Below, in pieces: positions 1,957 to 19,880 of a DNA stretch of 20,000 nt. Below the pieces are notes generated by a model. It had not been told where the DNA came from. It was given only the letters and a program-made list of their open reading frames with translations, and did not search any database. The first letter of the stretch is position 1; every line of letters starts with the position of its first letter. Origin of the DNA: Malassezia furfur (Eukaryota); NCBI GenBank assembly GCA_052055015.1, contig JBQJIT010000016.1; one strand, 5' to 3'. Made by a program: the position numbers and the translations under genes.

Positions 1957-4900
1957 ATGTTTGTGCGTATCCGCTGAGATGACGTTGTTTGTTACTAACA
2001 CACCTCCAGTGGCGTTTTGGCGTGGCTCCGGTCTCGACACTGACCACGCTGCTGGAAAAACCTGATATTACCGTCGAGGATGTGTTGAACGAGCCCGACC
2101 TCCTGCAGGAATGCAAGTCGAACAACCACAAACTCGTTGCATACCTCCAGCAGCCTGAGGTCCTTCAGCGGCTGCTCGACTACGTCATCGGCGCTGTGGA
2201 AGTGGAAGATGTCTCGGACAGTTCCAACCAGGAAAAGATTGCCTTCAAGTACGTCCCAAGTCGTTGTCGCGCATACTAACCACAGATATCCCTACTTTGC
2301 TTCTGAGGTGCTTAGCAGCGAGATACCCGAGATCTCCCTGGTTCTCTTTCAAAACGCACAGGCGCTGCTCGCGCCCTTCTGGGATAATTTCCTCTCCACT
2401 CCCTCGGATGCATTTGAGCGGCCCATGCCGCTGCATGCCCATCCCCTCACTTCGGCAACCTACGTCAAGTCGGAGGTGGGCGGCCCTAGCGATGACAACG
2501 AGGAGAAGAAGCAGGAGGAGAAGTCGACCGGCGAGACAGTCAAGTACTCGGGCCGCTCGCATGGTCCTGGGCACACGGTGTTGGCTGGGTACTGGTCCAA
2601 GGTGAACATGGCGTTGCTTGAAAAGCATCCGCAGGAGATGCTGGCGTTTGTGCAGACGCTGCCGACAGCCGTCGAGGGGCTTGTGTCGCACTTTGAGACG
2701 TCGTCGGTAGTCGACCTCTTGTTCCGCCTGATCCAGACGGAAGATTCCGTGCCGGATGCCGGCATCATCCAGTGGTTCGCCGACAACGACCTGATTGCGC
2801 GTATCGTGGCGCTACTGTCTCCGCATGTCTCGACCGAGCAGCACAAGGCGGCGGCCGAGTTCCTGAAGGCGATCATCTCGCTGTCGGCGCCGTCGCCCTC
2901 GGCCCTCAACCAAATTACCATGCAGGAGACCTTTGGCGGACCGGGCGAGATGCTGATGGGTGCCGGTGGTGTCAACAACCTGCTGGTGCGCGAGCTCGCA
3001 AGCGAGGAGACGGTGAACAAGATGACCTACTTCATGCTGGACTTTAAGCCGACGTTCAAGCCGTTTGCGAGCGGCAGCGGCTCCGAGGGCGCAGCGTCGC
3101 GCAAAGCATCGATGCGTGGCACGCTCGACTCGTCGCTGCCTGCGCTGCGCGAATCGCTCTCATCGGATGAGTCGGCGGTCGAGGAAGAAGAAGACGACGA
3201 CGATGATGACGAGTGGCAGTTGCGGCTTAGTTTCAAGAACCGCCGCATGTCGCTCGCGCAAGGGATGAACGGCGGCCGCGGCCCGGCGCACCGCGACTCC
3301 ACGGCGACGGTGCGCCCCTCCGACCTACGCCGCGACAGTATTGTGCGGCAGGGCCCCTCGCAAGCCGCCATCACCTCGTCATTCACCAACTGTGCCGGAG
3401 TGTTTATCGAGTTGATCCGCAAAAACAACAGCGACTACTTTGAGCAGCACCTGTTCCACACGCTGCGCAACTACCTGCTCCTCCGGCAGCAGGAGGTCTC
3501 TGGAAAGCGCCAGCAGGAGCGCCTCGCGCAAAAGACGGCCGAGGGGCAATCGGACAAGCAGGACCTGACGCTGGAGGACCTTCCATTCGAGGACGACGAC
3601 GACGTTGAGGGCATGGAGGAGGCCATGGCCGAAGTCGCTGAAAAGATGGGCATCGTCCACCTTGGCCCGCTGCTCCAGGTTCTCTCTAACAGGATACCCG
3701 ATTTGCAAGAGATGATGAAGAGCCCCAAGTTGGCGGTGCCGTTTGTCTCGACGACTCTAGGCCAGATTGAGCCGCTCACGCAGACGCGCTACTGCATCGC
3801 CGAGCTCTACGCCGAGATGCTGCACTGCTCCAACATGGTCTTACTCAACCGCGAGCCCAATGTCGGGCCGCAGTACTCGCCAACAGGCACGCTGCTAGGC
3901 GGCATCGAGGGCCTTCAGCGGCTCGCGCGTGCGCTTCAGGGAGACGACGGCGGTCCGCTGTTTGAGTCGAACGAGCCGTCGAGCAGCGCCCCGCAGCACA
4001 GCGCCCCGCAGCCTGAGCTGCACGTCGAGTGCTCGGACGACGACGAACCGCCCGCCGGGGTGCCGACCACCTCCACTTCGAGCGACCGGCTGGCGGCGCC
4101 GCAGCCGGGGAGCGCCAGCGGGCACAGCAGCGAAGGCGAGTCGTCCGACTCGGAGGCTGACAACGCCGCGGACGATGAGGACGCCAAGAGCATTGCGTCA
4201 GCGCTGTCGAGCATGTCGCTGGCCGACCTCACGGCGCAGTTTGCGAGTCGGCCGCCGAGTGTCAACGACGACCACCTGTATGCGACGGTGGGCGACTACC
4301 TGAAAAAGCAGTTCTACGACTTCCAGGTGGTGCCGACGCTCGTCGAGCTCTTCTTGAACCATCCGTGGAACAACTTCCTGCACAACGTCGTCTACGACAT
4401 TATCCAGCAGCTCTTCAACGGCGACATGGACGCCGGCATCAACAAGAAGCTCACCATCGCCACGTTTGAGCAGGCCGGGCTCATCGACGCCATCCTCGAG
4501 GGCTCGCGCCGCAACCAAGAGTCCAGCAGCCAGCTGCGCCACATCCGCCTCGCGTTCATGGGCCACCTCAATCTGATCGCCGAAGAGGTCATCAAGCTCA
4601 TGGAAAAGTACCCCGCGGCCGTCGGCGAAAAGGTCAAGAACTGCTTCCCGCAGCCCGATTGGGACACGTTCGTGAACGACGAGCTGCGCGTGTCGCGTGT
4701 CAAGGAGGCCATGCCGCTCGCCGGTGGGCGCCCCAACGCCAATGCCAGCAACGACCAGAGCTGGAACAAGGACTCGGACAACTGGTATGCGGACTCCGAG
4801 GGGAACAACACTTTCGCACGCTACCTCTCGTCGCAGATGCGCAACGAGTCCACGGAGGACGAGGCGCAGGAGAACGACATCCTCGCACAGCTCGAGGAGC

Positions 4901-5574
4901 GCACCATCGGCTCGTTCCCGGGCGACGACGAGGAGGGCGACGAGGACGAGTGGGGACCGTTCTCCGACTCGAACCGCGCCTCCGACTTCAACTTCATCTC
5001 GACGGGCGCCATTGCTCGTGCACAGGCGAACGCCGGGAGCTCGGTGCAAGAAAACCTTACCCCCGCCGACTGGGCCGCCGAGTTCCGGCGCGGGGGGATG
5101 GGTGCCATTCCGTCGGACGATGCGGTCGACAACGACTCGGACTCGGACTCGGCAGGCAGTGGCCGCAACCGCGACGACAAGGACGGCACGGACTCGGACG
5201 ACAACGGCGCCGACGACTCGCCGTTCGTTGACCTGCACAAGCCGGCGACGCTGCGCCAGCGCGCTCAAACCAGCGAGTCGCTTCCGACGGCACGCAGCCC
5301 CGAGGCCATGGAGGAGGTCATGAAAAACCAGGGCGAGCGCTGGCCGGCCGCCGAAGCCGCCAAGCACGTGCGGTCGCTCAGCAGCGGCAGCGAGGACCGC
5401 GCGCAGGACTGGGCCCTGGCTCAGCTCCCGCCGGATGTGGAGCCCACCAAGGACGGTCTGCTTCGCCGCAAGCTCTCGGACGGTACCAGCGTCACTGTGC
5501 CATTGGACGACGCCGAGCTCATGGCGACCGAGTCTGCGCTGGATATTTCGGACGACGAACAGAGCGCCTCATAG
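1957..5574 (+). CDS. SIT4 phosphatase-associated protein (SAP155/185/190, PP6 regulatory subunit family), ~1177 aa; exons 1957-1962, 2010-2248, 2286-5574
   Basis: Splicing GTGCGT..TACTAAC..CAG (1963-2009, 47 nt) and GTACGT..TACTAAC.CACAG (2249-2285, 37 nt) gives the family-typical N-terminus MFWRFG...LLQECK..N.KLV.YL...KYPY.ASEVL. Later motifs include IELIRKNNSDY, AELYAEMLHCSNM, HPWNNFLHNVVYD and FMGHL, followed by an acidic disordered tail. Confidence 0.93.
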
Positions 5575-5827
5575 TACACGTCCCCCGCAGGCGAAACGAC
5601 GTAACGCCGACCCACTTCCCTCCACCTGCCGCGATGCGCACGCGCACGACGGGCGATGCAATCCGCACGTATGCAGCGAATGACCGTCCGTACCCCACTC
5701 GGCCGAGACGGAGATTACCGGGCGGGAGGTGAGATCGGACTGCTTCAGCGCGCAGTTAGTTACCCCGCAGAGCGGTTCGGTAACTGTGTACAAGAATTAC
5801 CGGGGTTTCTTAGTTTCCTGCATCATC

Positions 5828-7012
5828 ATGACGAACGCATTCATTGTTGGCTCGAAGCGCACGGCATTTGGCTCTTTCGGTGGCAAGCTGAGCCAGATCA
5901 ACGCTGCTCAGCTTGGTGGCCACGCCGCCAAGGCTGCGCTGGCTCAAGCTAAGGCTGATACCCCCATCTCGTCGACCGTCTTCGGTGTGGTGACCCAGTC
6001 GGACTCTACGACGCCCTACCTCTCCCGCCACGTCGGCCACCACGCCGGCCTGCCCATCACGGTGCCGGCCCTCACGATCAACCGTCTGTGTGGCAGTGGG
6101 TTCCAGGCGGCGATCAACGCCTTCCAGGAGATCAAGAGTGGCGACTCCGAGGTGGTGCTCACCGGTGGCACGGAGAACATGAGCATGTCGCCCTACACGC
6201 TCCACGGTGTTCGCTTTGGTAACACGCGCTATGGCGTCGACCTCAAGCTGGCGGACAGCCTCGCGAGCTCCCTGGTCGACCAGGTGCCCGTTCCTACCCC
6301 TATGGGTGTCACTGCTGAGAACCTCGCCGTGAAGTACGGCATCACGCGCGAGCAGTGCGACCAGTTCGCGCTCCAGTCGCAGCAGCGCTGGGCCGAGGCG
6401 AACAAGAACGGTGCCTTCAAGGACGAGATCGAGCCTATCGAAGTCAAGGTGAAGAAGGCCACTGAGACCTTCGAGGTGGACGAGCACCCGCGCGCGAACG
6501 CTTCGCTGGAGTCGCTTGCGAAGCTGCCCCCGGTGTTCAAGAAGGACGGTGTCGTGACCGCCGGTAACGCGTCGGGTATCTCGGACGGTGCCGCGGCCAA
6601 CGTGATTGCCAGCGAGGATGCGCTCACGAAGTACGGCCTCAAGCCCCTTGCGCGTATCGTTAGCTACGGTGTGACGGGCTGCGAGCCGTCGCTCATGGGC
6701 ATTGGTCCCGTCGAGGCCTCGCGTGTGGCTCTCAAGCGCGCGGGTCTGACCATTGCTGATATGGACCTGATCGAGGTGAACGAGGCCTTTGCTGCCCAGT
6801 TCCTCGCGGTCCAGAAGGAGCTCGAGCTGCCTAACGACAAGACGAACATCAACGGTGGCGCTATCGCGCTCGGTCACCCGCTTGGCGCCAGCGGTGCCCG
6901 CATCATGGCGAACCTGACCTACAGCCTGCACCGCCTCGACAAGAAGTACGCTCTTGGCGCGGCCTGCATTGGTGGTGGCCAGGGTATCGCGGTTGTCCTT
7001 GAACGTGTTTAA
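5828..7012 (+). CDS. Acetyl-CoA C-acyltransferase (3-ketoacyl-CoA thiolase, mitochondrial ACAA2-like), 394 aa, intronless
   Basis: Thiolase motifs INRLCGSGFQA (catalytic Cys), GGTENMS, VTAGNASGISDGAAA, EVNEAFA, GGAIALGHPLGASG and CIGGGQG are all present. The first ATG is at 5828 and codon bias is strong. Confidence 0.93.
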   Translation: MTNAFIVGSKRTAFGSFGGKLSQINAAQLGGHAAKAALAQAKADTPISSTVFGVVTQSDSTTPYLSRHVGHHAGLPITVPALTINRLCGSGFQAAINAFQEIKSGDSEVVLTGGTENMSMSPYTLHGVRFGNTRYGVDLKLADSLASSLVDQVPVPTPMGVTAENLAVKYGITREQCDQFALQSQQRWAEANKNGAFKDEIEPIEVKVKKATETFEVDEHPRANASLESLAKLPPVFKKDGVVTAGNASGISDGAAANVIASEDALTKYGLKPLARIVSYGVTGCEPSLMGIGPVEASRVALKRAGLTIADMDLIEVNEAFAAQFLAVQKELELPNDKTNINGGAIALGHPLGASGARIMANLTYSLHRLDKKYALGAACIGGGQGIAVVLERV

Positions 7013-7173
7013 ATAGCTCTTGGAATCGCCTCGACTTGAAAACCTGAACAGATAAGAAAAGCAAAATGAGCTCGTGCGAAGACGCTGGCGGGCAGAGCGG
7101 GGTAGGCTTGGCAGCACAAAAAACGGATGCGACACGTTCTAGAGCGATCTTCTGAGGAAAGAGTCTCGAGATT

Positions 7174-7263
7174 GACTTTATAACTCAGTTGGTTAGAGTA
7201 CCACGTTAACAACGTGGAAACGGAATTCCGTGGAAGTCCCCGGTTCGAGCCCGGGTAAAGTCA
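7174..7263 (+). tRNA. tRNA-Val(AAC) with a predicted 16-nt intron (7212-7227)
   Basis: Acceptor stem GACTTTA/TAAAGTC plus discriminator A; D arm ACTC-AGTTGGTTA-GAGT; anticodon stem CCACG/CGTGG with AAC at 7208-7210; variable loop AAGTC; T arm CCCGG-TTCGAGC-CCGGG. The intron sits at the canonical 37/38 position, and U32 can pair with the antepenultimate intron base A7225. Confidence 0.9.
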
Positions 7264-7273
7264 TTCTTTTTTT
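7264..7273 (+). terminator. RNA polymerase III terminator (T7 run) of the tRNA gene
   Basis: TTCTTTTTTT lies directly after the discriminator base. Confidence 0.8.
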
Positions 7274-7292: not shown

Positions 7293-10057
7293 CTATTTTT
7301 TAGCGTGCGACCCGGCGAGTATGTCTTTCCAAGCCAGCAGAACTTGGAGGGTATCACGATCTGCTGGGTCGTCTTGAGGTTGAGAATGCTGTTCATGAGC
7401 ACGAATCCATTCATAGAGGGTGGATGAGACCACATTCGTGGCTTCATTCGCATAGTCGTGCGAATGGGGTACGCCAAGGTCCAGCAGCCATTCTGCATAC
7501 TCCAGCTTGTTTTTCCGGCACTGCTCATTGGGTAGCGGGAATGTGGCCGAGCGCGAAAAAAGATGCTGTGCCCAAAGGAACAGTGGCATCGCAAAGGCTT
7601 GCATGGCGACCGTAGGGTTGTGCAATTTGTCCGAAGGCAGGAACATAATGTTCCGAAAGTTTTGCAGGAAGGTGAATGCCCCGCCACAGTCTTCCAGTGT
7701 GGAAGTAGCCTCGTTAGGTGTAGAAATACAGGACAGCAACTGTTGCAAAGACGTCTCCAGCATCGAGATATCGCGGACAATTTGCACCTTTTCGTCTTCC
7801 TCGTGCAGTCGGATCAAGGTCACGAACAGAAGGAAAGCCCGCAAGACAAACTGCACCAAATCTTTCACTGCCGTCTTGACCTCGTCTAAAGCCGTAATAC
7901 GGTTCAGAACGCCGTTTCGGAGCGACGTGAGTCGTGCGTGCAACTCCAACATATATGTACTCACTGGAGCTTTGTTCGGATGGGCTCCTGGCGCCGCTCT
8001 TGCCTTTTCGAGCTTGAACCGGGACATTCGTGCCAATACGCTCACCAGCTCAGCTTGAACCGACCGACACAACGGATCCATCAGGTCCTGGTGGAGTATA
8101 CGGCTCGCCGTTCGTTCCCATTCCAAAGCCTGTTCAGAAACGTGGGCGTGAAGCGAATCGGAACGAGCGCGAAGGTCTTGTAGAAAGGCGATTAACACAG
8201 CCATCACAGCTGCATTTTGCAACTGCTGACGTGGGGGCTGCGGTTTTTGAAGTGTATACGCCAAGTCGTCGCGCGAAATTTGGGTACTCAGGTCGACGAA
8301 CATAGCATTTACCGCAGAAGAAAGTGTCTCGGCCACCCTGCTCGCCAGTCGCTCATCGGTAGCACATGCGCTGGACTCGGTCGTAACAATGCGCATCAGG
8401 GCGTGAGTCAGCGCAGGTGTGTCAGCCGCACTGCTTGGGCTGGACAGGAGGGTATGCACAAATTGTCGTCTCTCGCCCAATTCCTGGGTCACAGTCCGCA
8501 AGTACGACTGTTCAAGTTCGCCCAGCAGAGAGAGTACAGATTTGGGCCAATCCTCGTAGCCTGTCGGCACAGACGACTCGTCTGTTAGCAGTGCGATTCT
8601 CGCGAAAAGCTCCTTGAAGATGGCCAGCAGGTGAGGGTAGGTCGAAGTCACAATGAATCGCCAAAAGTCGGACTCCTCAATGCACTCGTGCACAATCATG
8701 CGAAAGTTGCGCGCAAAAGACATCCATAGCAGGTCAGTTGGCTTTTCGTGCAATTGCTGCGTAAGTATTCCGACATACGTGCATCAAGGACTCCTGGAGT
8801 GTCGCGCCTGACTTGCTGGTATGCTTGGAGCGCAGGACATACTCGAGCATGTTAATCTTGGTAAAAATGGGTGCCATCTCATCGACGATTAACGAGCGCA
8901 GCTGCGTCCATACGCCCGATGTCCACTGTTGCAGGAGTTGTGCATCCTCGGCGGTCAGTGCACGGTCTGGAAGTTGGTAATGCATCGAGAGCAACGTCTT
9001 GAAGGAGAACGATGGTGGCTGGGCTTTCCCGAGCCCCTTGCCAATGGTGTACAAATCCAAGGCCGAGCGGATGCGCTCGAGCAAGACGGCATTGAGGTCC
9101 TCGATGAAGTTCTCGACCAGGCGCGCAAGCTGGTTGCGATGTTCGGCTGCCTGAAGCGCAAGACCGAGAAGCGCGGGCGACAGGTTCCGAAGACCGTACA
9201 GTAACGTATTCTCGACCTGCTCCTGGAGCAGCTGCGACGCATCCGGCAGCAGCGCCAGGTGCGGCGCAAGAAAGTCGAGCTGTACACAGTCCTCCCGTAG
9301 CTGTTTGTCCAGTTCGTCCTCATCTTCCCAAGGCTCGAGCAATTGCTCCAACTGCTCCAGTGTGATGCAGGCAGACAGAATGTGGGTCGCCTGTTGCTGC
9401 ATTAACTTGGGATCTTGTCCGGAGCCTGCCGCTTCCGAGCCAAGAATGGTATCCATCTGAGAAGACAATCGTGTGCACAAAGCAATCATCTCTTGTGCAC
9501 GAAAAACGAGCTCTTCTCTCTCCTGCAGCGCTTCGAGGTGCGTTTGGTTTTCTTCGATGCGCCGAAGAGACGACGTGACATTCGAGCGTGCGCTGCGTCA
9601 GTTTCCATCGCACGTACGATTTCACACGGTGATGAAGCTTGTTAAACTCTTGCAAGATGTCAGACACAGAGTCACGAAGAGGCGCGACGTTGGTGATGCG
9701 CTCCAGGAACTGCGTCGAATGCAAGGTGATCTGGGATGAGATTCGCACTTACCAGACCATGAATGTCCTGGTCGACCTCAGTGATGGACACATTCAAGCG
9801 GCTCAGTGCAACACGCATGTCTGTGTCAACTGATGCTACGCGGTTCGAGACATCCAGCGTGTTCTCCGACGCCGACCCCGGGTCCTGGGGCTGCGCCGGC
9901 GAGCTCAGAAACTGACTCGCGTACGTTTGTGCATCAAAGTCATCGCGCAGAAATACAGCGTGGTCTGCGTAAGTAGATTTCACCTACCGAATGAGCCAGA
10001 TCCGGGCTTCGCCGGGGCCGAGCTTTTCTCGGAGTGGGCCAAGCTCGTGTCGGCCAT
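7293..10057 (-). CDS. COG5: Conserved oligomeric Golgi complex subunit 5-like protein, ~890 aa; exons 10057-9988, 9964-9753, 9730-9618, 9592-8779, 8756-7293
   Basis: Four GT..AG introns (9987-9965, 23 nt; 9752-9731, 22 nt; 9617-9593, 25 nt; 8778-8757, 22 nt) join the ORF-track fragments into one frame. The N-terminus (FLRDDFDAQTYASQFL...ALSRLNVSITEVD), PVSTYMLEL and LIRL.E.EK..IVRD...LE resemble fungal Cog5. The family assignment is from recognition, not a search. Confidence 0.8.
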
Positions 10058-10223
10058 GGCAGCGCACCTCCGCAATTGTCGAACGCGGAGCGTGCACGCG
10101 CACGGGCTGGGAATTATGCAAGAATGGTAGGACCCGGCATCGGCGGGGGCGGTCGGACGGGCATAGACACTGGTTGATGGTGCCTAGGCAGTGTCTATGA
10201 GCATGTTTCTGGAGAGTCGTGGT

Positions 10224-10744
10224 CTATGCTGGGGCGCCCGGTGCTTGCTTTGACCGGCTTTCAATTTCGCGCTGAATCAGCTCCTCCTGCCATTTCTGGA
10301 TTTCCCTCTCGCTGGCAACGATCCCGCGCTGGCCCAGCTCGCGCATGGCGCGGTTCCGAATGAGGTTATCATGAGTACGCTTTTCGTATTCGAACCGCTG
10401 CAGCGCGGTCTCGGCGGCAAACACCAACCCGATAGAAGCCGCTGTGTAAGTGTATAGACGTGCCTGACATAGTCAAGAACGCTTTAAAGGCCAGCGTCTG
10501 GCGTCTTCATCATAAGTAGACCGACGTACCGGAACGAAGGAAAGATGTGGTGCGACGCGAAGACACCGGTAAAACCTACGAAGCCCCACACCAAGGCTCC
10601 GCGAATGCCCGCACGCTGCATGAGCCACGCATTGCTCTTACGTACCACCTGGACCTGATGCGCATTTTTGACGTTCTCCTTATCGAACTGTCTCCGCTCT
10701 CGGTGGGTGAGCAAACCAGACGAAGACGACCCCCGCGAGTCCAT
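10224..10744 (-). CDS. Small two-transmembrane protein, HIG1/Rcf-like (probably mitochondrial), ~147 aa; exons 10744-10646, 10615-10530, 10504-10464, 10441-10224
   Basis: Introns 10645-10616 (30 nt, in frame), 10529-10505 (25 nt) and 10463-10442 (22 nt, GC-AG) give ...RAGIRGALVWGFVGFTGVFASHHIFPSFRRQTLAFKAFLTMSAASIGLVFAAETALQRFE... This is two hydrophobic helices around the P.FRRQTLAFKAFL loop seen in fungal HIG1/Rcf-like proteins. Confidence 0.7.
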
Positions 10745-10845
10745 CGCGTTCAACGTAGATCCGATCGGAGTAGCAACTCAGGGCCGGAGGCACGAATGTG
10801 GAGAAAAATGCGCCGAAAAAAAGTCATCCGGAAGCCTGCATCATT

Positions 10846-11699
10846 ATGGGCAGCTCGAAGAGTGGTGCGAATTCGAGCAGCGTAGTGGTGTCGCCAGGTA
10901 CGTGATCTTTTCCTAACCAAGACGCCCTGCGGCTGGTGTATTCCTTTCTCTATACGCATGCGAAGCCGAAGCTTGCGTCCAAGCTTGCGGATCAATACCC
11001 TAAGCTGAATTTGGAGGAAGACGCGAGTCGCGCGGAGGAGCTGTCGAACGCGCTCGTGCACACGGTGACCAGTGCGCTGGCGGTCCCCAACTCTGAAATT
11101 GCCAAGGCGCTGAACGGGGAGAAGAAGAAAGCGCGCAAGTCGGAGGAAAAGGAGTCGAAGAAGTCGAAGAAGGCCAAGGTACGTGTGCGAGATTGACCGC
11201 AGAAGAATGACGACACACCTGCTCCCGTGGTCGAGGAGCCCGATGCGGCGAATGAGTCTGTCATGCAGGTGGACACCACGGAGGCACCTGCGACGGCGCC
11301 CGAGACGGTCGCCGAGGTGTCGGTGACCGAGTCGCAGCCGACGGGCGAGACGGTCGTTACGGAAACTGTGCGCACTGAGGCCCCGAAGCCTTCCAAGAAG
11401 ACGAAAACGCCAGGCGAGCGCTTCCAGCGGGTTAAGTCGGACCAGGCGACGTTCCTAGACGACCGCTTGCGCGATATGAGCTATGCGGCCAAGGTACGTG
11501 ATGTGCTTATGCAGTCGGGTGCGGGTGACTATGGAGCGCGTGCAAATGCCGACCTGATCGTTACGCAGGGCAAGGCGTTCACGAAGGAGAAAAACAAAAA
11601 GAAGCGCGGAAGCTATCGCGGTGGAATTATTGACCAGGGGTCCCAGTACGTGTATGCACTTACACCAGCTCCATCAAATTCACGTACGATGACGAATAA
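10846..11699 (+). CDS. SRP40: Srp40/Nopp140-like nucleolar protein (SRP40_C domain), ~253 aa; exons 10846-10897, 10922-11178, 11203-11493, 11515-11645, 11669-11699
   Basis: The SRP40_C motif ERFQRVK...DYGARANADLIVTQGKAFTKEKNKKKRGSYRGG is present. Removing the 23-nt intron 11646-11668 restores the family C-terminus GSHSIKFTYDDE*. Other introns are 10898-10921 (24 nt), 11179-11202 (24 nt) and 11494-11514 (21 nt). The N-terminal LVYSFL segment is LisH-like. Confidence 0.85.
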
Positions 11700-11705
11700 T
11701 TGTCG

Positions 11706-13576
11706 TCACATGGCGCGCTCGGTGCGCTCGCCGTGGGCTATCGCCTCATCCCACATGCCAATCTCGAGTCGAGTGGCCCTGTGTGAGTAGTCATCACGTA
11801 CGTGTTCCATATTTCCTGGAGATGGTCCGTCTCTTCCACCGACGGCATCACGCGCGCGGCGCAGCGCTCGAGCATCTCCAGGGTAGACCGGACTGCGCCT
11901 TGGAAGTCGTCTCCACCGTATTCATCCAACCACGCCTCGTAGCTGGGGTCACGCGGGCCGCTCGGGGTGGGGTGCCGCTGGCGCTGCTCCTTGAGCCAGA
12001 GACCCACCTCGGCGTACCCAAATGCACACGACGCGACCGACACGAGCAGCGGGAGAATGCCTTCACGGGCCATATCCATCACGTAGCGCGTGTAGGCCAT
12101 CGTTGCGCGACTCTCTTCGGTGCGCTCGAGCTCGTCACGCGGAATGCCCGCGCGCTCACACACCGTCGCATGTACACGTGTCTCGTCAATGGCAGCCCGC
12201 GAAATAGTGAGATAGTCGCGCAAATCTTCCGGCGAGCACGTCGGATCGGAAGCCGCCGCGGCCCACACGCGGGCATAGTGCTTAAGGTACAGATAGTCTT
12301 GCCGCATGAACCACACGAACGCCGCCTTGGACAGCTTGCCTTCGCACATGCGCGCCACAAACGGATGGCGCGTGTACAAGTGCCACAGATGCCACGAACG
12401 CGCAATAAGTTTGGTTGCGAGCGGCGCCGCACACCGCGCTGTATGCATGGGAATGCCGCGCGGCATGATGTGCGAGCCATGATTAAGCGGCCCCGCACCC
12501 TTGCCAAGGTCCTCGATGCTGCTCTGCAGCGCCTCTTGCAGAAACTGGAGGCCGTGCGCCACGGCGACCCGCAGCGGAAGTCCGTGCGCATGCGCCGCAC
12601 AGATCGCCGACGACAGCGTACACCCCGTGCCGTGCGTTGCGCTTGTCGAGATCGTCGGCTTAATGAACACCGTCGTGTGCTGCGTCGCAGACTCGTATAG
12701 CACGTCGACCGTGTAGGAGGATGGGCCGACGTCAGGCAGGTTGCGGCGTAGGACACGCATGTCGCTGGGGCCACGTACGAGGAATACGTCAAGCCGTGGC
12801 GCTTGGAACGCAGATGCACCCAGCACCTGTGCAATGTCACTACGTTCGCTGCGCTCGACGCGCGTAGAGAGTGCCGCCGTGCCGTGTGCATCGCGCGTCG
12901 TCGACACGCGCGTGTCGCTGAAACCGGCGATCGCTTCGTCGTCGGTGCATAGCGGAAGCGAGACACCCGCAGCTCGGAGCGACTCTTGCAGATCGTCGTG
13001 TGCAATGGGAACGTGTCCGCCCTTGACGAGTACGTTGGCGACGCCCAGGCGCGCAATGGACTGGGCCGAGGCCATCATCTTGGCAAGGTCATTCGTCGCA
13101 GCTGGCGGGGTTACGCCGGCGTTCTGGAGGATCGCGTCGGTCTCGGGCAGATTGGGGGTGAGCAGCGTACACAGCGGAAAAAGTCCTTCGATCAGCGCGC
13201 CGATTGCGTCGCGTTGGAGCAGGAGCGAGCCCGAGGTCGAGACCATCACGGGATCCAACACGACGGGCACGGCGTGCTGCTTCTGCCACGCGGCGATGCA
13301 TTGTATGACCTCGCGAACGATGGGCGCATTGGCAAGCATCCCAATCTTGATGGCGTCGATGCGCACATCGGTCGCGACCGAGTCAAACTGCGCACGCACA
13401 AACGCCGGGTCGGGCGTGTGGACGCTCTGTACGCCCTGGGTGTTTTGGGCGGTGAGCGCGGTCAGCACCGACATGCCGTACGTCTGCAGGGCAAGGAACG
13501 TCTTGAGGTCCGCTTGGATCCCGGCGCCACCGCCGGAGTCGGAGCCCGCGATGGTCAGTGTGCGCGGAAGGGCCAT
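11706..13576 (-). CDS. THI20: Hydroxymethylpyrimidine/phosphomethylpyrimidine kinase - thiaminase II fusion (ThiD-TenA, THI20 family), ~615 aa; exons 13576-11802, 11778-11706
   Basis: ThiD motifs: [59 protein letters not shown] and [11 protein letters not shown]. TenA motifs: HPFV, QDYLYL and SCAFGY. Splicing 11801-11779 (23 nt) restores the TenA end [12 protein letters not shown]. Confidence 0.92.
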
Positions 13577-13647
13577 GGTACGTGCGGGGTAGGCAGCAGG
13601 GCTTCGGGCGCACGGCGCGCCGGCCTCCACACGCCGCCTGTTCTTCC

Positions 13648-16065
13648 ATGGCGACGGCCGATCCGTTGTCGTACGTCAGCTCGACGCGCGCGTTTGCCTA
13701 CCTGACCGAGCGCGGCGAGGATGCGCTGCATGCCGTCAAAGAGGCACTCGGCTCTGGGTCGAACAAGTATCTCGACGCCGACCCCAGCGCGATCCGCAAG
13801 CAGCTCGAAAGTGGGAGCGACGTCGAGCGCCTCGAAGGAGTCAAGCATGTGCTCGCCCTAATCTCCAAGGGGCGCGACCCGACACCGTTCCTCGCGTCGG
13901 TGTTTAAGCTGGCATCTACGACCTCGCTCGAGGTGCGCAAGCTCGTGTACATCGTCGTGCTCCGGTATGCGCGCACACAGCCCGACCTGGCCCTGCTGTC
14001 GATCAACAGCTTCCAGCGCGACCTTACCGAGCCCAACGCACTGATCCGCGGCATGGCGCTGCGTACGCTCAGTGGCATGCGTGTCAAGGCTGCCGAGTCG
14101 ATCGTGACGCTTGCTATTGGCAAGGCAGTGCGCGATACCCATCCCTACGTCCGTCGCGTCGCGGCGTATGCGCTGATGCGCAGCTACCAGGCGGACCCAG
14201 ACAATGCCGAGACGTACGTCGATCTGGTGCACACGCTCCTGCGCGATCGCTCGCCCCAGGTCCTTGGCCCGGCGCTCGCCGCATACACGGCAATCTGCCC
14301 CGACAAGTGGGACATGCTGCATCGGCACTTCCGCAAGCTGTGCTATGCGCTCAGCGACATGGACGCCTGGTCGCAGCCGGGCGCTGTCAACCTGCTTGTG
14401 CACTACGCGCGCCTGCACCTCCCGGAGCCACACGACGGGCAGGACATGGATCCCGATCTTGCGCTGCTCGTCGACCACATCGAGCCGCTGCTTGCCAGCA
14501 CCAACCCTGGCGTGGTGGCGGCAGCCGTACAGGCCCTGCTGTCTGTAGCGCCCACGGCACGGCACCGACGCGCTGTCGCGGCCCTCGTGCGTCTCGTGCG
14601 TGATACGCCGGACGTGGCCTACGTCGCGACGCTGCGTGTGCTTGCGCTGGACGCCGCCTACATCCCTCTGGTCGCGCCGATGGCCGCGCACTTTTACGTG
14701 CGTGCCGACGACCCCGAGTACTTGGCGCGCGCCAAGCTACGTGTGCTGCTCCGCGTCGCGCAGCCGAGCACGGCGCGGGCGCTGGCCGACGAGCTCGTCG
14801 TGTATACCCAGGCGGCATCCATCGCCGTAGCGCTCGACAGCGTCACGGCGCTGGGGAACGTCGCGTGCCGCTTCGACGCCCATGCAGCACACTGTCTCAA
14901 GCTGCTCATCGGCATCGCACAGGACCCAAGCAGCCCTGAGCCGGTCGCCAGCCGCGCTGTGCAGGTGGCCAAGATGCTCATGGCGATCCCCAACGTGATC
15001 GGCGACAAGGTCGTTGTGCGCGTGGTTGCACAGTTTGCGCTGCGCCTCTTTGCACCGCTCGCACGTGCGGGGAGACCCAAGGACGCGCACTTGCCATCCA
15101 TCCTGCTCGATCCGTCGTCGCGCGCCGCAGCGCTGTGGATGCTCGGGCAATATGCGCGTGCGACGCTGGTGCCGGCCACGGACACGACGCCGAGTGCGAC
15201 GCTGTGCGAGCTGCTTGTGCCGGACATGCTGCGCTGCCTAACGGCGCACTGGCACAAGGAGCACGCAAGCGTGCAGTGTGCTACGCTCACGCTCGCGGCC
15301 AAGGCCATCACGGTGCTTCCGGATGTGGGGGCCAGTGTGGCCGTACGCAGTGCGACGCTGACGCTCTACTATGCGCTGCTCGCGCTGGGCGCACAGAGCC
15401 GCGATGCGGATGTGCGCGATCGCGCTCGCTTCTACGGGAGCCTCACACGCAAGATCGCCGAGGAGCAGGCGCCACATGCGCCGGACGTCGATGCTGCCCA
15501 CGAGCAGTTCTGGGCGCAGCACCACGAGCTCGATCGGCAGCGCCTGCCGGGCGTGCGACTCCGGCGCGCACAGGTGCAGCATGTCCTCTTTGCACACGAC
15601 ACGGCCGATGCCGCGTCGATCGGCACGCAGCTTGCCCTGGATACCCCCACGTGCCCGCCCGAGGCCGTGCCGACCTTGGTCGGCCCCGTCTTCTTGCGGG
15701 GGGCCGCAGCGGCGCACGTGCCGGCGTGGCGCCCGGCGTCGGAGCTGCCGCCCGCGATCGTGCGCATGCCCGAGGCCGAGCCAGCGCACGCCGAGATGGC
15801 CAACGTGCGCTCCTTGTCGAGCGCTTCAGCGCCGCCGCCCGCGCCCGCCGTCGAGGCACGTGCGCCGGTGGAACGCGTCGTGCTGACGCCCAAAGAGACG
15901 CACGCACCGCCGCGTCCCGCGTACCAAGCGCGCTATGCGGACCTCGATGCGTTCTTTGACGAGGACGATGATGAGGAGGTCGCGCGCGTGAGTCTCGACG
16001 AGGCGGCGCCCGAGGACGATGAGTACGCGCTGAGCGAGTCGAGCGACTCGTCCGATTCGGCGTAG
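13648..16065 (+). CDS. APL6: AP-3 adaptor complex beta subunit, ~805 aa, intronless
   Basis: Adaptin-N motifs SLEVRKLVYI, DLALLSINSFQRDL..PNALIRGMALRTLSGMR, HPYVRR.AA, LHRHFRKLC..L.DMDAWSQ and DVRDRARFY are AP-3-beta type. The first ATG is at 13648 and the C-terminal tail is acidic. Confidence 0.9.
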   Translation: MATADPLSYVSSTRAFAYLTERGEDALHAVKEALGSGSNKYLDADPSAIRKQLESGSDVERLEGVKHVLALISKGRDPTPFLASVFKLASTTSLEVRKLVYIVVLRYARTQPDLALLSINSFQRDLTEPNALIRGMALRTLSGMRVKAAESIVTLAIGKAVRDTHPYVRRVAAYALMRSYQADPDNAETYVDLVHTLLRDRSPQVLGPALAAYTAICPDKWDMLHRHFRKLCYALSDMDAWSQPGAVNLLVHYARLHLPEPHDGQDMDPDLALLVDHIEPLLASTNPGVVAAAVQALLSVAPTARHRRAVAALVRLVRDTPDVAYVATLRVLALDAAYIPLVAPMAAHFYVRADDPEYLARAKLRVLLRVAQPSTARALADELVVYTQAASIAVALDSVTALGNVACRFDAHAAHCLKLLIGIAQDPSSPEPVASRAVQVAKMLMAIPNVIGDKVVVRVVAQFALRLFAPLARAGRPKDAHLPSILLDPSSRAAALWMLGQYARATLVPATDTTPSATLCELLVPDMLRCLTAHWHKEHASVQCATLTLAAKAITVLPDVGASVAVRSATLTLYYALLALGAQSRDADVRDRARFYGSLTRKIAEEQAPHAPDVDAAHEQFWAQHHELDRQRLPGVRLRRAQVQHVLFAHDTADAASIGTQLALDTPTCPPEAVPTLVGPVFLRGAAAAHVPAWRPASELPPAIVRMPEAEPAHAEMANVRSLSSASAPPPAPAVEARAPVERVVLTPKETHAPPRPAYQARYADLDAFFDEDDDEEVARVSLDEAAPEDDEYALSESSDSSDSA

Positions 16066-16132
16066 GTGCGTAGGTAGGAAGTAAGCGCCCACTTTTTTTT
16101 GTGCCTCCACCCGACGCCTTTTTTTTGTCGCC

Positions 16133-17626
16133 ATGCCGAAAGCCCCGTCGACGCAGCGGCGCGGCGCACGGCCAGCGGAAGCGCGCCGTCCGCTTGGCCA
16201 GGATATCCAGGAAGACCAGATGGTGTCGCGGTTTGGGCGTGTGCGCACGCCGAAGCAGGGCAAGCGTGCCGCGAAGCACGGCGACGACGACGACGGCGAC
16301 GCAGCGCACTCTGCCGGCCTGCGTGTCACGGGCGGACGCGCTGGGCGCACCACCGTGGACCCCAAGCTGAGCCGCAACATTCTGCGGCTCGCGCGTGAGC
16401 AGCAAGAAGAGATTGAGCGCGAAGAGGCCGAGCTCGAGGCCGAGGAGGAGGTGGCGCCGCCCGCGTTCCGTGGCGAGGCGGAGCTGGAAGACGACGACGA
16501 GGGCGACGACGAGGAAGCGTCGGTCGACAGCGACGACGCGGACGACTACGACCCGGACTATGCACAGCTCGATATCCGGCCCGAAGACCACGCGCTGCTC
16601 GAGCGGCACGACGCCGAGGAGGAGCAGGCGCTCGAGGAGATGGGCGAGGATGGCCTGCCGCGGCCCAAGACCAAGACGCTCGCGGACCTCATTATGGCCA
16701 AGATCCAGGCCGCGGAGGACGGGCAGCCTGCCGAGATGCCGATGGAGGAGAGCGACGGACGGATGATGCCGCCGGGCATCAATCCCAAGGTGATTGAGGT
16801 GTACGTCAAGGTCGGCGAGCTCCTGTCGCGCTACAAGTCGGGTCCGCTGCCCAAGGCGTTCAAGATCATCCCCTCGTTGCCCGCGTGGGAGGACGTGCTG
16901 TACATTACGAACCCCGAGACGTGGACGCCGCACGCGACGCTTGCGGCGACGCGCATCTTTGTGTCCAACTTCAAGCCGGCGCAGTGCGAGCGCTACTACC
17001 AGCTCGTGTTTTACGACAAGATCCGCGACGAGATCCGCGAGAACAAAAAGGTGTCGTACCAGATGTACGAGGCGATCAAAAAGTCGCTGTACAAGCCCGC
17101 GGCCTTCTTCAAGGGCATCCTCTTCCCGCTGTGCGACGGCGGAGGTGTGACGCTGAAGGAGGCGGCCATCATCGGCTCGGTCCTGTCCAAGGTCTCGATC
17201 CCGGTGCTTCACTCGGCCGCGGCGCTGCTGCGCCTCGCGGAGATGGAGTACAGCGGGCCGAACTCGCTCTTCATCCGCATTCTGCTCGACAAGAAGTACG
17301 CGCTGCCGTACAAGGTGATCGATGCGCTCGTGTACCACTTTTTGCAGTTCGCCGACAAGTCCAAGGGCGTCGAGGTGACGCGCACGCGTGCGGGTGTCGT
17401 GGGCGAGCGCCGCATGCCCGTCCTGTGGCACCAGAGTCTCCTCGTGTTTGCGCAGCGCTACAAGAGCGACCTGACGCCCGACCAAAAGCTCGCGCTGCTC
17501 GACCTGATCCGTGTGCAGCGGCACCCGGGGATCGAGCCGGACATCCGGCGCGAGCTGTCCACGGGCGAGTCGCGCGGCGAGCTGCTCCCCGAGCCGCTCG
17601 ACGAGGACGACGACATGTCGCTGTAG
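16133..17626 (+). CDS. ENP1: Bystin / essential nuclear protein 1 (pre-40S assembly factor), 497 aa
   Basis: Bystin motifs LSRNILRLAREQQ, LSRYKSGPLPKAFKIIP, YKPAAFFKGILFPL, IPVLHSAAAL, LLDKKYALPYKVIDALV and PVLWHQSLLVFAQRYK. Confidence 0.96.
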   Translation: MPKAPSTQRRGARPAEARRPLGQDIQEDQMVSRFGRVRTPKQGKRAAKHGDDDDGDAAHSAGLRVTGGRAGRTTVDPKLSRNILRLAREQQEEIEREEAELEAEEEVAPPAFRGEAELEDDDEGDDEEASVDSDDADDYDPDYAQLDIRPEDHALLERHDAEEEQALEEMGEDGLPRPKTKTLADLIMAKIQAAEDGQPAEMPMEESDGRMMPPGINPKVIEVYVKVGELLSRYKSGPLPKAFKIIPSLPAWEDVLYITNPETWTPHATLAATRIFVSNFKPAQCERYYQLVFYDKIRDEIRENKKVSYQMYEAIKKSLYKPAAFFKGILFPLCDGGGVTLKEAAIIGSVLSKVSIPVLHSAAALLRLAEMEYSGPNSLFIRILLDKKYALPYKVIDALVYHFLQFADKSKGVEVTRTRAGVVGERRMPVLWHQSLLVFAQRYKSDLTPDQKLALLDLIRVQRHPGIEPDIRRELSTGESRGELLPEPLDEDDDMSL

Positions 17627-17735: not shown

Positions 17736-19829
17736 TTAGTCGATCGACTCCATCGCCGACTCGGCCGCCGGCTCGCTCTCCTTGGGCGCCTCGGTCGCCT
17801 CGGCCTCGTTGGTGTCGAGGTCGTCGATCGAGAGACCCAGCGAGATGAGCTTGAACAGGCGGTTCGCAAACTCCTGCGGGTGCTCGAGCGAGAAGCCCGA
17901 GGTGAGCAGGCTGCTGTCGTACAGCAGGAACACGAGGTCGCGGACCGTCGGGTCGTTCTTGTCCTGCGCCATCTTGGCCGCGAGCTCCTTGATGATGGCG
18001 TTGTGCGGGTTGATCTCCATGGTCTTCTTCGAGGCCATGTACTGCGACATGGAGGTGTCGCGCAGCGCCTGCGCCTTCATGATACGCTCCATGTTCGCCG
18101 ACCAGCCGAACTGGCCCGTCACCAGCACACAGGGCGAGCCGACAATGCGGTTCGAGACGGTGACCTTCTCGACCTTGTCGCCGAGAATGTCCTTGACCGT
18201 CTTGGTGAGCTCCTCAAACTTGGAGGCCTCCTCCTCGCGCTGCTTCTTCTCCTCCTCGGTCTCCTCGAGCTCGAGGCCCTCCTTCGAGACCGAGACGAGC
18301 TTGTGGCCCTCGAACTCCTTGAGCTGCGACACGGCGTACTCGTCGATCGGGTCCACCATGAGCAGCACCTCGAAGCCCTTCTTCTTGAGCACCTCGAGGA
18401 ACGGCGAGTCCTTCACCGCCGACAGGCTCTCGCCCGTCAGGTAGTAAATGTTCTTCTGGATCTCGGGCATGCGCGTGATGTAGTCCTTCAGGCTGGTCAT
18501 CTCGTCACCGCTCTTGGTCGAGTGGAAGCGCAGGAACTCGGCGAGCTTCTGGCGGTGCGTGGCGTCCTCGTGGATACCGAGCTTGATGTTCTTGCCAAAG
18601 GCCTCGTAGAACTTGGCAAAGAGCTCCTTGTCCTCGGCGACCTCCGAGATCAGGTCGAGCGTCTTCTTGACCAGGTTCTTGCGGATGACCTTGAGGATCT
18701 TGTTCTGCTGCAGCACCTCACGCGAGATGTTGAGCGGCAGGTCCTCCGAGTCGACGACACCCTTGACAAAGTTGAGGTATTCGGGCATCAGCTCCTCGCA
18801 GTCATCCGTAATGAACACACGGCGCACGTAGAGCTTGATGTTGCTCTTCTTCTTCTTCGACTCGAACATGTCGAACGGCGCGCGCTTCGGCACAAAGAGG
18901 ATCGCCTTGAACTCGAGCTGACCCTCCACCGAGAAGTGCTTCACCGCAAGGTGGTCCTCCCAGTCGTTCGCGATCGTCTTGTAGAACGACGCGTACTCCT
19001 CGGGCGTCACCGTCTTGGGCTCACGCGTCCAGATCGGCTTGGTCTTGTTCAGCTCCTCGTTCTCGGTCACCGTCTCCTTGACCGTCTTCTTCTTCTTCTT
19101 CTCGGCCTCGTCGTCGACCTCCTCGATCTTGGCCTTCTTCTCGTCGTCCGCCTTCTCCTCCTCAGGGGCCTCGACCTCCTTCTCGACCTCCTTGGTCACG
19201 ACGAGCTGGATGGGGTACGAGATGAACTCGGAGTGCTTCTTCACAATCTCCTTGATGCGCTTCTCGTCGAGGTACTCGAGCTGGTCCTCCTTCATGTGCA
19301 GGCGCATCTCCGTACCGCGACCCAGCGAGGGGTTCTTGGTGTCCTGCGTGATGGTGAACGTGCCACCCGCAGCGCTCTCCCAAATGTACTGCTCGTCGTC
19401 GTTGTGCTTGGTGATGACCTCCACCTTGTCGGCAACGAGGTAGGCCGAGTAGAAGCCCACACCGAACTGGCCGATCATGGAAATGTCGGCACCCGACGAG
19501 AGCGCCTCCATGAACGCCTTGGTGCCCGACTTGGCGATCGTACCAATGTTGTTCACCAGGTCGGCCTTGGTCATACCCACACCAGTGTCACGGATCGACA
19601 GGATGCGGTTCTCCTTGTCGGGCGTGATGCGGATGTACAGGTCCTTGCCCGAGTCGAGCACGCTCGGGTCGGTCAGGGCCTGGTAGCGGACCTTGTCGAG
19701 AGCATCCGACGCGTTCGAGATCAGCTCACGAAGGAAAATCTCCTTGTTGCTGTAGAACGTGTTGATGATCAGGTCCAGCAGTTGACTGATGTCGGCGGCA
19801 AAGCCGAACGTCTCTTGTTTCTCAGCCAT
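17736..19829 (-). CDS. HSP90: Cytosolic heat shock protein 90, 697 aa, intronless
   Basis: Motifs [55 protein letters not shown] and [16 protein letters not shown], a charged linker, and very strong codon bias. Confidence 0.98.
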
Positions 19830-19880
19830 GATGTTTCAATGAACGGCGTACCAGTTGCGTGGCCCGCAGCGCGCAGTTGC

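Follow-up and report, generated by a model that had tools for sequence, protein, structure and literature searches.

Probable ultra-short spliceosomal introns with a closely anchored branch-like motif in four adjacent genes of the Malassezia furfur group

Introduction

Why are the reading frames of four adjacent genes in a Malassezia yeast interrupted by stretches of only 21–30 nucleotides (nt), and what are these stretches? The question is raised by a 20,000-nt stretch of contig JBQJIT010000016.1 from a Malassezia furfur assembly (GCA_052055015.1), the whole of which is called the window here. Between positions 7293 and 13576 it holds COG5, a HIG1-like gene, SRP40 and THI20, and an initial annotation made from the sequence had divided these genes by twelve spliceosomal introns in which the branch point is nearly fused to the 3′ splice site. 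From the reading frames, the colinearity with orthologues, the Pfam coordinates, and the excess and fixed placement of the motifs we conclude, with a probability of roughly 0.9, that all twelve are true introns of the major (U2-dependent) spliceosome and belong to the ultra-short class typical of Malassezia, eleven being GT-AG and one GC-AG introns. Their lengths fall within that class (about 20–40 nt; published mean 30 base pairs, bp), and two further introns in the window measure 37 and 47 nt.

Results

Reading frames

All twelve segments are present at the positions and with the lengths proposed, each on the sense strand of its own gene. Their excision yields four uninterrupted frames, of 890 amino acids (aa) for COG5, 147 aa for the HIG1-like gene, 253 aa for SRP40 and 615 aa for THI20. 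In a retention test, each segment was put back singly into the spliced gene and the frame was read again. Ten of the twelve retentions give a frameshift or an in-frame stop, which agrees with the number of introns said to be required for the frame. The two frame-neutral exceptions, 10616–10645 (30 nt) and 11494–11514 (21 nt), are multiples of three in length (3n) and contain no stop. The gene names proposed along with the introns hold as well: Pfam places COG5_N and COG5_C in COG5, SRP40_C in SRP40, and Phos_pyr_kin and TENA_THI-4 in THI20, while the HIG1-like gene is so called by UniRef name only. Below, each intron is given with its length, donor hexamer, the YTNAY pentamer near its 3′ end and the number of bases between this pentamer and the closing AG.

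The COG5 coding region (7293..10057, minus strand) has five exons. Its introns, likewise on the minus strand, lie at 9965–9987 (intron 1; 23 nt, GTAGGT, CTTAC, 2 nt, AG; phase 1), 9731–9752 (intron 2; 22 nt, GTAAGT, CTCAT, 3 nt, AG; phase 0), 9593–9617 (intron 3; 25 nt, GTACGT, CTGAC, 2 nt, AG; phase 2) and 8757–8778 (intron 4; 22 nt, GTATGT, CTTAC, 2 nt, AG; phase 0). A stop appears at aa 25 when intron 1 is kept, and retention of introns 2, 3 or 4 shifts the frame and leads to a stop at aa 120, 230 or 417, respectively.

The HIG1-like coding region (10224..10744, minus strand; four exons) contains three introns on the same strand, at 10616–10645 (intron 1; 30 nt, GTACGT, CTCAT, 2 nt, AG), 10505–10529 (intron 2; 25 nt, GTACGT, CTTAT, 5 nt, AG) and 10442–10463 (intron 3; 22 nt, GCACGT, CTTAC, 2 nt, AG). 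Intron 1 is one of the two frame-neutral segments. When intron 2 is kept the frame shifts and ends at a stop at aa 76; for intron 3 the corresponding stop is at aa 106.

SRP40 is encoded on the plus strand (10846..11699) in five exons. They are separated by introns at 10898–10921 (intron 1; 24 nt, GTACGT, CTAAC, 2 nt, AG), 11179–11202 (intron 2; 24 nt, GTACGT, TTGAC, 3 nt, AG), 11494–11514 (intron 3; 21 nt, GTACGT, CTTAT, 2 nt, AG) and 11646–11668 (intron 4; 23 nt, GTACGT, CTTAC, 3 nt, AG), all in the plus direction. Retention of intron 1 brings an in-frame stop at aa 19, and exon 2 has no methionine and therefore cannot start on its own. An in-frame stop at aa 108 follows from keeping intron 2, and with intron 4 kept the frame shifts into a long unrelated tail. 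Intron 3 is the second frame-neutral segment. A second in-frame acceptor lies 3 nt downstream of intron 2 (11205), which would make the intron 27 nt instead of 24 nt long and would remove one lysine from a lysine-rich stretch; the sequence by itself is compatible with either acceptor.

In THI20 (11706..13576, minus strand; two exons) a single intron on the minus strand occupies 11779–11801 (23 nt, GTACGT, CTCAC, 2 nt, AG). Without splicing the protein acquires an unrelated tail, and such a tail is found in the open reading frame (ORF) calls P0002 and P0005, which come from the same or a close species, in the National Center for Biotechnology Information (NCBI) model P0006 and in P0181, which is labelled M. 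furfur.

Orthologous proteins and Pfam domains

A comparison with orthologues had been suggested as a check and was made. The spliced models are gapless at the junctions in most COG5 orthologues and, for the HIG1-like gene, in the M. yamatoensis protein P0179, and the peptide of THI20 exon 2 is kept. The restored frame is colinear with orthologues in THI20, at the four junctions of COG5 and at the three of the HIG1-like gene; for SRP40 intron 3 it is the Pfam coordinates that agree.

Orthologues of COG5 were collected by a HMMER scan of exon 4 against 1.84 billion representatives, which returned 64 matches, and 16 of the longer ones were aligned. Junction 1 is gapless in 11 of the 14 orthologues that cover the site, the other three being N-terminally short or truncated models. 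At junctions 2 and 3, 13 of 15 covering orthologues each are gapless, and at junction 4 this is the case in 10 of 16. Some of the aligned sequences, for example P0128 (845 aa) and P0130 (991 aa), are long ORF calls from Logan/ENA assemblies that run without interruption and are independent of any intron model. Another member, P0001, is an unspliced ORF call from a relative and begins right after the intron at 9593–9617. When metagenomes were scanned with COG5 exon 4, 96 pattern matches were returned, none of them from a relative.

Within COG5 itself, exon 2 carries COG5_N, and COG5_C is split between exon 4 (profile positions 4–136) and exon 5 (143–186). The 76 positions of SRP40_C are divided in a similar way: positions 1–25 match the end of exon 3, and positions 30–68 match exon 4. 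As the profile coordinates of COG5_C and SRP40_C abut between exons, the two domains continue across the junctions. At the spliced junction of SRP40 intron 3 there are three residues for the four free profile positions (26–29), so that the seven more residues added by keeping the intron would be an insertion. Exon 4 ends at profile position 68 of 76, and eight positions are left for the last exon of 9 aa.

The HIG1-like protein is 76% identical to P0179 (145 aa) over 132 aligned aa and gapless across all three junctions. The UniRef name of P0179, 'HIG1 domain-containing protein', is the sole support for the HIG1 label, and Pfam scans of three HIG1-like exons and of P0179 gave no match. The M. 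brasiliensis model P0178 is gapless at the junctions of introns 2 and 3 and reads the 30-nt intron at 10616–10645 through as 10 aa. Four of these ten residues differ between the window and P0178, all in the spacer, compared with 9 of 139 positions in the exons (Fisher p = 0.006), and the parts that correspond to the donor (VR) and to the branch and acceptor (LMQ) are the same in both. The 30-nt intron is absent from P0179; its absence from P0211 is judged by cluster membership only, P0211 lying outside the alignment. For intron 3, the residues of P0178 and P0179 are obtained only with the GC donor. Splicing from the closest GT donor, which lies 5 nt upstream, would disrupt the frame, and an alternative pairing of GT donors that gives introns of 32 and 27 nt, worked out by hand, runs into a stop; the GC donor therefore remains.

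The last exon of THI20 comprises 24 codons, and its peptide is conserved, in the spliced reading only, across the aligned proteins of Malassezia and of further basidiomycetes, among them smut-fungus, Cryptococcus and rust entries. Spliced THI20 is identical to the NCBI protein P0183 (615 aa) at 608 of 615 positions, the whole C-terminus included. P0183 belongs to a cluster that holds M. furfur entries, and it already has the THI20 intron removed. A scan with an alignment of Malassezia THI20 proteins returned 80 loci, among which there was no Malassezia locus; they matched short parts of the query, mostly the conserved end of the kinase domain, at 28–61% identity, and were taken to be bacterial ThiD-type genes.

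Splice signals and chance controls

Eight of the twelve donors are GTACGT, so that the description of the donors as mostly GTACGT stands, and GTATGT, GTAAGT, GTAGGT and GCACGT occur once each. In the initial annotation the GCACGT donor of 10442–10463, and with it the presence of a GC-AG intron, had gone unflagged. All twelve introns begin with G[TC]ANGT, in line with the extended donor of U2-type introns (GTRNGT type), which is able to pair with U1 and U6, and position +4 of the donor is C in nine. Introns of the U12 type carry the donor /RTATCCTT and the branch motif TCCTTAAC; both are absent from the donors and 3′ regions of all twelve introns.

A YTNAY pentamer is found in every intron; counted back from the last base, its A lies at 5 nt in eight introns, at 6 nt in three and at 8 nt in one. 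The initial annotation had placed a putative branch motif mostly 5–6 nt before the intron end, with the A at intron position 16–20 in 11 of 12, and both statements fit: the A is at 5–6 nt in 11 of 12 introns, and it stands at intron position 16–20 in all but the 30-nt intron, where the position is 25. Between pentamer and AG there are 2 nt in eight introns, 3 nt in three and 5 nt in one, and in all twelve the putative branch A is followed by no other AG before the acceptor. A polypyrimidine tract had been reported missing, and with merely 2–5 bases between pentamer and AG there is indeed no room for one there; on the upstream side of the pentamer, pyrimidines make up over half of the spacer in 3 of 12 introns. 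From donor hexamer to pentamer the distance is 6–10 bases, or 15 in the 30-nt intron. The motif is degenerate, as had been described, its middle base being T in six introns, C in three, G in two and A in one. The pooled G+C fraction of the introns is 0.486 versus 0.585 in the exons.

These signals were compared with chance. GTACGT occurs 20 times in the window against an expected 5.72 ± 2.47, and none of 200 dinucleotide-preserving shuffles of the window reached 20. The composite pattern GTANGT-N5-22-YTNAY-N2-3-AG has 12 matches against 0.30 ± 0.55 expected in 500 dinucleotide-preserving shuffles (maximum 3). Ten of the twelve matches are introns of the initial annotation, one is a 37-nt intron in the SAPS gene, and one is the antisense image of the GC-AG intron. 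A YTNAY pentamer with its A 5–6 nt from the end is present in 11 of the 12 introns, compared with 26 of 1369 control segments (1.9%), which are the other GT..AG stretches of 21–30 nt within the window.

Two intron-like matches were rejected. The one at 10446–10472 (plus strand) is the antisense image of the HIG1 GC-AG intron 10442–10463, though the pattern is complete, and the one at 13671–13710 (plus strand) lies inside the adaptin frame, which the excision of its 40 nt would shift. Read on the opposite strand, the frequent branch word ACTTAC becomes GTAAGT, the classical donor, and several introns therefore bear a donor-like word in antisense.

Two longer introns in the SAPS gene

The SAPS gene (2089–5571, plus strand; Pfam) has two longer introns in the plus direction. 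Intron 1 (1963–2009; 47 nt) has the donor GTGCGT and, with its A 11 nt from the end, a TACTAAC that is followed by C/T-rich sequence; excision of the intron joins ATG-TTT to a frame starting WRFG, which we take to be the usual start of SAPS proteins. Intron 2 (2249–2285; 37 nt) has the donor GTACGT and TACTAAC with the A 6 nt from the end, and is the composite-pattern match mentioned above. Its excision merges two frames into one of 1184 aa, with the SAPS Pfam domain downstream. Both introns carry a perfect TACTAAC, unlike the short introns, in nine of which the middle base of the pentamer is a pyrimidine. With the branch A 11 nt from the end in the 47-nt intron, tight spacing between branch and AG is not universal in this genome, and a nearly fused branch site is not general to all of its introns; the close placement accompanies small intron size.

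Gene layout and origin of the window

The window is GC-rich (61%), and its eukaryotic genes are densely packed. It contains 14 introns in total, twelve of 21–30 nt, one of 37 nt and one of 47 nt, within 5 of about 10 genes. The frames of thiolase (5684–7009, plus strand), adaptin (13507–16062, plus), bystin (16085–17623, plus) and HSP90 (17739–19835, minus), all named by Pfam, appear without interruption. Between the 3′ ends of thiolase and COG5, 29 nt from the COG5 stop codon, lies a gene for a valine transfer RNA (tRNA), tRNA-Val(AAC), at 7173–7264 (plus strand); its 92 nt could accommodate a tRNA intron.

The HIG1-like gene is a small gene that separates COG5 from SRP40. Its stop is 166 nt from the COG5 start codon (10057–10224), and its start codon is separated by 101 nt from the divergent start codon of SRP40 (10744–10846). 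Packing is extreme between SRP40 and THI20, whose convergent stop codons are only 6 nt apart (11699–11706), so their 3′ untranslated regions must overlap.

Protein comparisons assign the window to the nuclear genome of a Malassezia species within the M. furfur group. With P0002, a member of a 90%-identity cluster in which some NCBI proteins bear the M. furfur label, the THI20 exon shares 99% identity; with two further Malassezia-labelled NCBI proteins it shares 83–85%, the better one being P0003, which is encoded on the contig that also carries the M. brasiliensis entry P0178. For the HIG1 exon the identity is 95% with the M. brasiliensis protein and 79% with that of M. yamatoensis.

Discussion

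In their sequence features the segments correspond to ordinary major-type introns cut down to the signals. Each intron consists of little beyond three signals, that is a donor hexamer, followed by a spacer of 6–15 nt, the YTNAY pentamer and, after 2–3 bases (5 in one case), the AG. Such an intron may be recognised as a single unit (intron definition). U2 would pair with the pentamer, and the A of the pentamer would attack the donor to form a lariat with a loop of about 16–20 nt. The acceptor would then be found by proximity, as the first AG past the branch, and a pyrimidine tract would therefore not be needed. The assignment of the branch to the A of YTNAY, the formation of a lariat and an efficient splicing are what we infer from the sequence. 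The 6–10 bases from donor to branch (15 in the 30-nt intron) leave too little space for the U1 and U2 particles to lie next to each other in the manner described for yeast and human, and an adapted spliceosome with altered use of U2AF, BBP or SF3b, as put forward in the initial annotation, is a reasonable candidate idea.

Several observations weigh against reading the segments as introns throughout. The Malassezia orthologue proteins from NCBI are gene predictions themselves, and their agreement with the spliced models is therefore not fully independent. For SRP40 introns 1, 2 and 4 the support comes only from frame logic and Pfam coordinates. At the last COG5 junction (intron 4), 6 of 16 orthologues have insertions, of 8 aa in P0120, P0001 and P0116 and of 2–3 aa in three distant orthologues; three look like read-through introns and three like small real indels. 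On the side of the introns, P0120, the M. yamatoensis COG5 model (639 aa), also has a 7-aa insert that begins with VS exactly at the site of intron 2. Inserts of the Malassezia clade that sit exactly at intron sites are as would be expected from the read-through of 3n introns starting GTnAGy (21 nt for the VS insert of P0120). The pentamer is weak, in that the usual fungal CTRAY is fitted by 3 of 12 and the middle base is a pyrimidine in nine, and with such a degenerate pentamer the identity of the branch nucleotide is not secure. Finally, the two 3n introns without stops could stay in part of the transcripts.

This last point leads to an unlikely alternative, in which some of the introns, above all 10616–10645 and 11494–11514, are facultative and are retained in a sizeable share of the messenger RNA (mRNA), giving isoforms longer by 10 or 7 residues. 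The frame is undisturbed when either is kept, the M. brasiliensis model P0178 does read the 30-nt intron through, and the ultra-short introns of microsporidia are reported to splice inefficiently, with a median of about 25% (PMC13644364). Yet both 3n introns carry the full set of signals (GTACGT, YTNAT, GC, AG), the SRP40_C profile coordinates suit the spliced form, P0179 lacks the 30-nt segment, and the ten read-through residues diverge between two close species in 4 of 10 positions against 9 of 139 in the exons, as for a non-coding spacer. Somewhat less probable still is that the pentamer is not a branch site but belongs to a longer acceptor signal that a protein or U5/U6 would recognise, with branching at another A or in an unusual manner. 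A pyrimidine at N, seen in 9 of 12 introns of this degenerate motif, would place a mismatch beside the bulged A in the U2 duplex, and this speaks for such a signal. On the other hand, both longer SAPS introns have a perfect TACTAAC at the equivalent place, the A is fixed at 5–6 nt in 11 of 12 introns, and for Yarrowia, Trichomonas and Giardia the same arrangement has been explained by an anchored branch site (PMC2483917).

Errors or decay would remove the need for introns altogether: the segments would be assembly or sequencing indels, parts of decayed pseudogenes or sites of translational frameshifting. Ten of the twelve do alter the frame, as indel errors do, but errors would not yield inserts of 21–30 nt that each start with G[TC]ANGT, end in AG and hold a YTNAY 5–8 nt from the end. 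Every one is in the sense orientation of its gene, the composite pattern has 12 matches where 0.3 is expected, and inserts or frame breaks occur at the same positions in independent assemblies of related species. We consider this explanation extremely improbable, and retain the reading of the segments as ultra-short U2-type introns.

Tiny introns are an already known property of the genus, as the initial annotation had stated, and at least one of the twelve, that of THI20, is already removed in a public protein model. The curated annotation of M. sympodialis ATCC 42132 counts 5350 introns, which average 30 bp and have RNA sequencing support for 99%, across 4493 genes, according to the intron passages of the report (PMC5389616, Zhu et al. 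2017), and those of the re-annotation of M. restricta KCTC 27527 give minimum intron lengths of 20 and 15 (PMC6473144). A review, in its available part, ascribes 'very short introns' to Malassezia genes (PMC7426719). Older annotations had mean introns of 65–79 bp. On these partial sources, the introns of M. sympodialis and M. restricta share with those of the window the genus, the size class and the need for low minimum-intron settings; the window differs in species, belonging to the M. furfur group. Donor or branch motifs and branch-to-AG spacing do not appear in the intron passages of PMC5389616 and PMC6473144, and the word 'branch' occurs 0 times in one supplement of PMC5389616.

The anchoring of the branch to the AG is likewise a known kind of architecture in other organisms. 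In the part of Irimia and Roy (2008; PMC2483917) on which we draw, Yarrowia lipolytica, Trichomonas vaginalis and Giardia lamblia have no pyrimidine tract and a branch site anchored 2 nt (Yarrowia) or 4 nt (Trichomonas, Giardia) before the AG, so that the nearly fused branch site is not a new layout. The introns of the window resemble these in having no 3′ pyrimidine tract and a gap of 2 nt in eight, 3 nt in three and 5 nt in one. They differ in other respects: as far as the excerpted source goes, the three organisms are intron-poor, with a strong ACTAAC-type consensus and mostly longer introns, whereas in the window CTAAC is found in 1 of 12 pentamers and twelve introns lie in four adjacent genes. 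In length the introns are comparable to the tiny introns of ciliates (Paramecium about 25 nt, Stentor 15–16 nt), microsporidia, dicyemids and myxozoans, as given in parts of PMC13644364, PMC5014332 and 10.1101/2021.08.05.455221, and to the short type-B introns of Trichomonas (23–25 nt; PMC12316389). These lineages are unrelated to Malassezia, and the steric question of how donor and branch are recognised on about 20 nt is common to all. In the available part of a 2026 paper on the shortest animal introns, whose exceptions name ciliates, Microsporidia and Dicyemida, 'Malassezia' has 0 occurrences (PMC13644364). Variation at donor position +4 in Saccharomycotina is, in the sections available, an A/U switch tied to METTL16 and SNRNP27K (PMC10581693). 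Against this switch of budding yeasts stands the C at +4 in 9 of the 12 short introns. The literature searched yielded no account of branch sites, donor preferences, tiny introns or splicing factors in Malassezia; a systematic description for the genus and its use as a model of tiny-intron splicing may be new.

The immediate practical value of these introns is a warning for annotation. Their lengths are below the default minimum of many gene finders, as the initial annotation had remarked, and public protein sets are damaged; conflicting public models of these very loci bear the remark out, as they disagree, fuse neighbours or miss introns. A cluster at least 90% identical to the THI20 of the window holds both P0181 (612 aa, unspliced, with the M. 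furfur label) and the spliced P0183 of 615 aa. P0006, from an M. psittaci contig, misses the THI20 intron, P0178 of M. brasiliensis fuses the HIG1-like gene to COG5 exon 4, in the middle of COG5, and keeps the 30-nt intron, and P0120, the M. yamatoensis COG5 model, keeps two intron-sized inserts. A study of fungal intron evolution classed M. sympodialis, for which the curated annotation counts 5350 introns, as intron-poor on genomes from Ensembl Fungi release 34 (PMC8476143). Sequence rules such as a mostly GTACGT donor, a YTNAY 5–6 nt from the end and the first AG as acceptor could guide annotation and splicing experiments.

Malassezia is culturable and transformable, as stated in excerpts of two sources (PMC7426719; PMC5654937). 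Ciliates, microsporidia and myxozoans are harder to culture and to manipulate than this yeast, yet recent reviews of the shortest introns, in their available parts, leave it unlisted. We tentatively raise the possibility that Malassezia is a culturable, transformable yeast in which most introns measure 21–30 nt, with the branch 2–3 nt before the AG, about 16–20 nt from donor to branch, a preference for C at +4 and a pyrimidine-rich CTYAY pentamer. This combination of lengths, anchoring, +4 C and CTYAY is described nowhere in the literature searched. If it were true genome-wide and accompanied by changes in U1/U2 bridging factors, in U2AF/SF1 or in the N6-methyladenosine (m6A) system of U6, Malassezia would be a tractable model for the assembly of the spliceosome on introns that are too short for side-by-side U1 and U2 small nuclear ribonucleoproteins (snRNPs).

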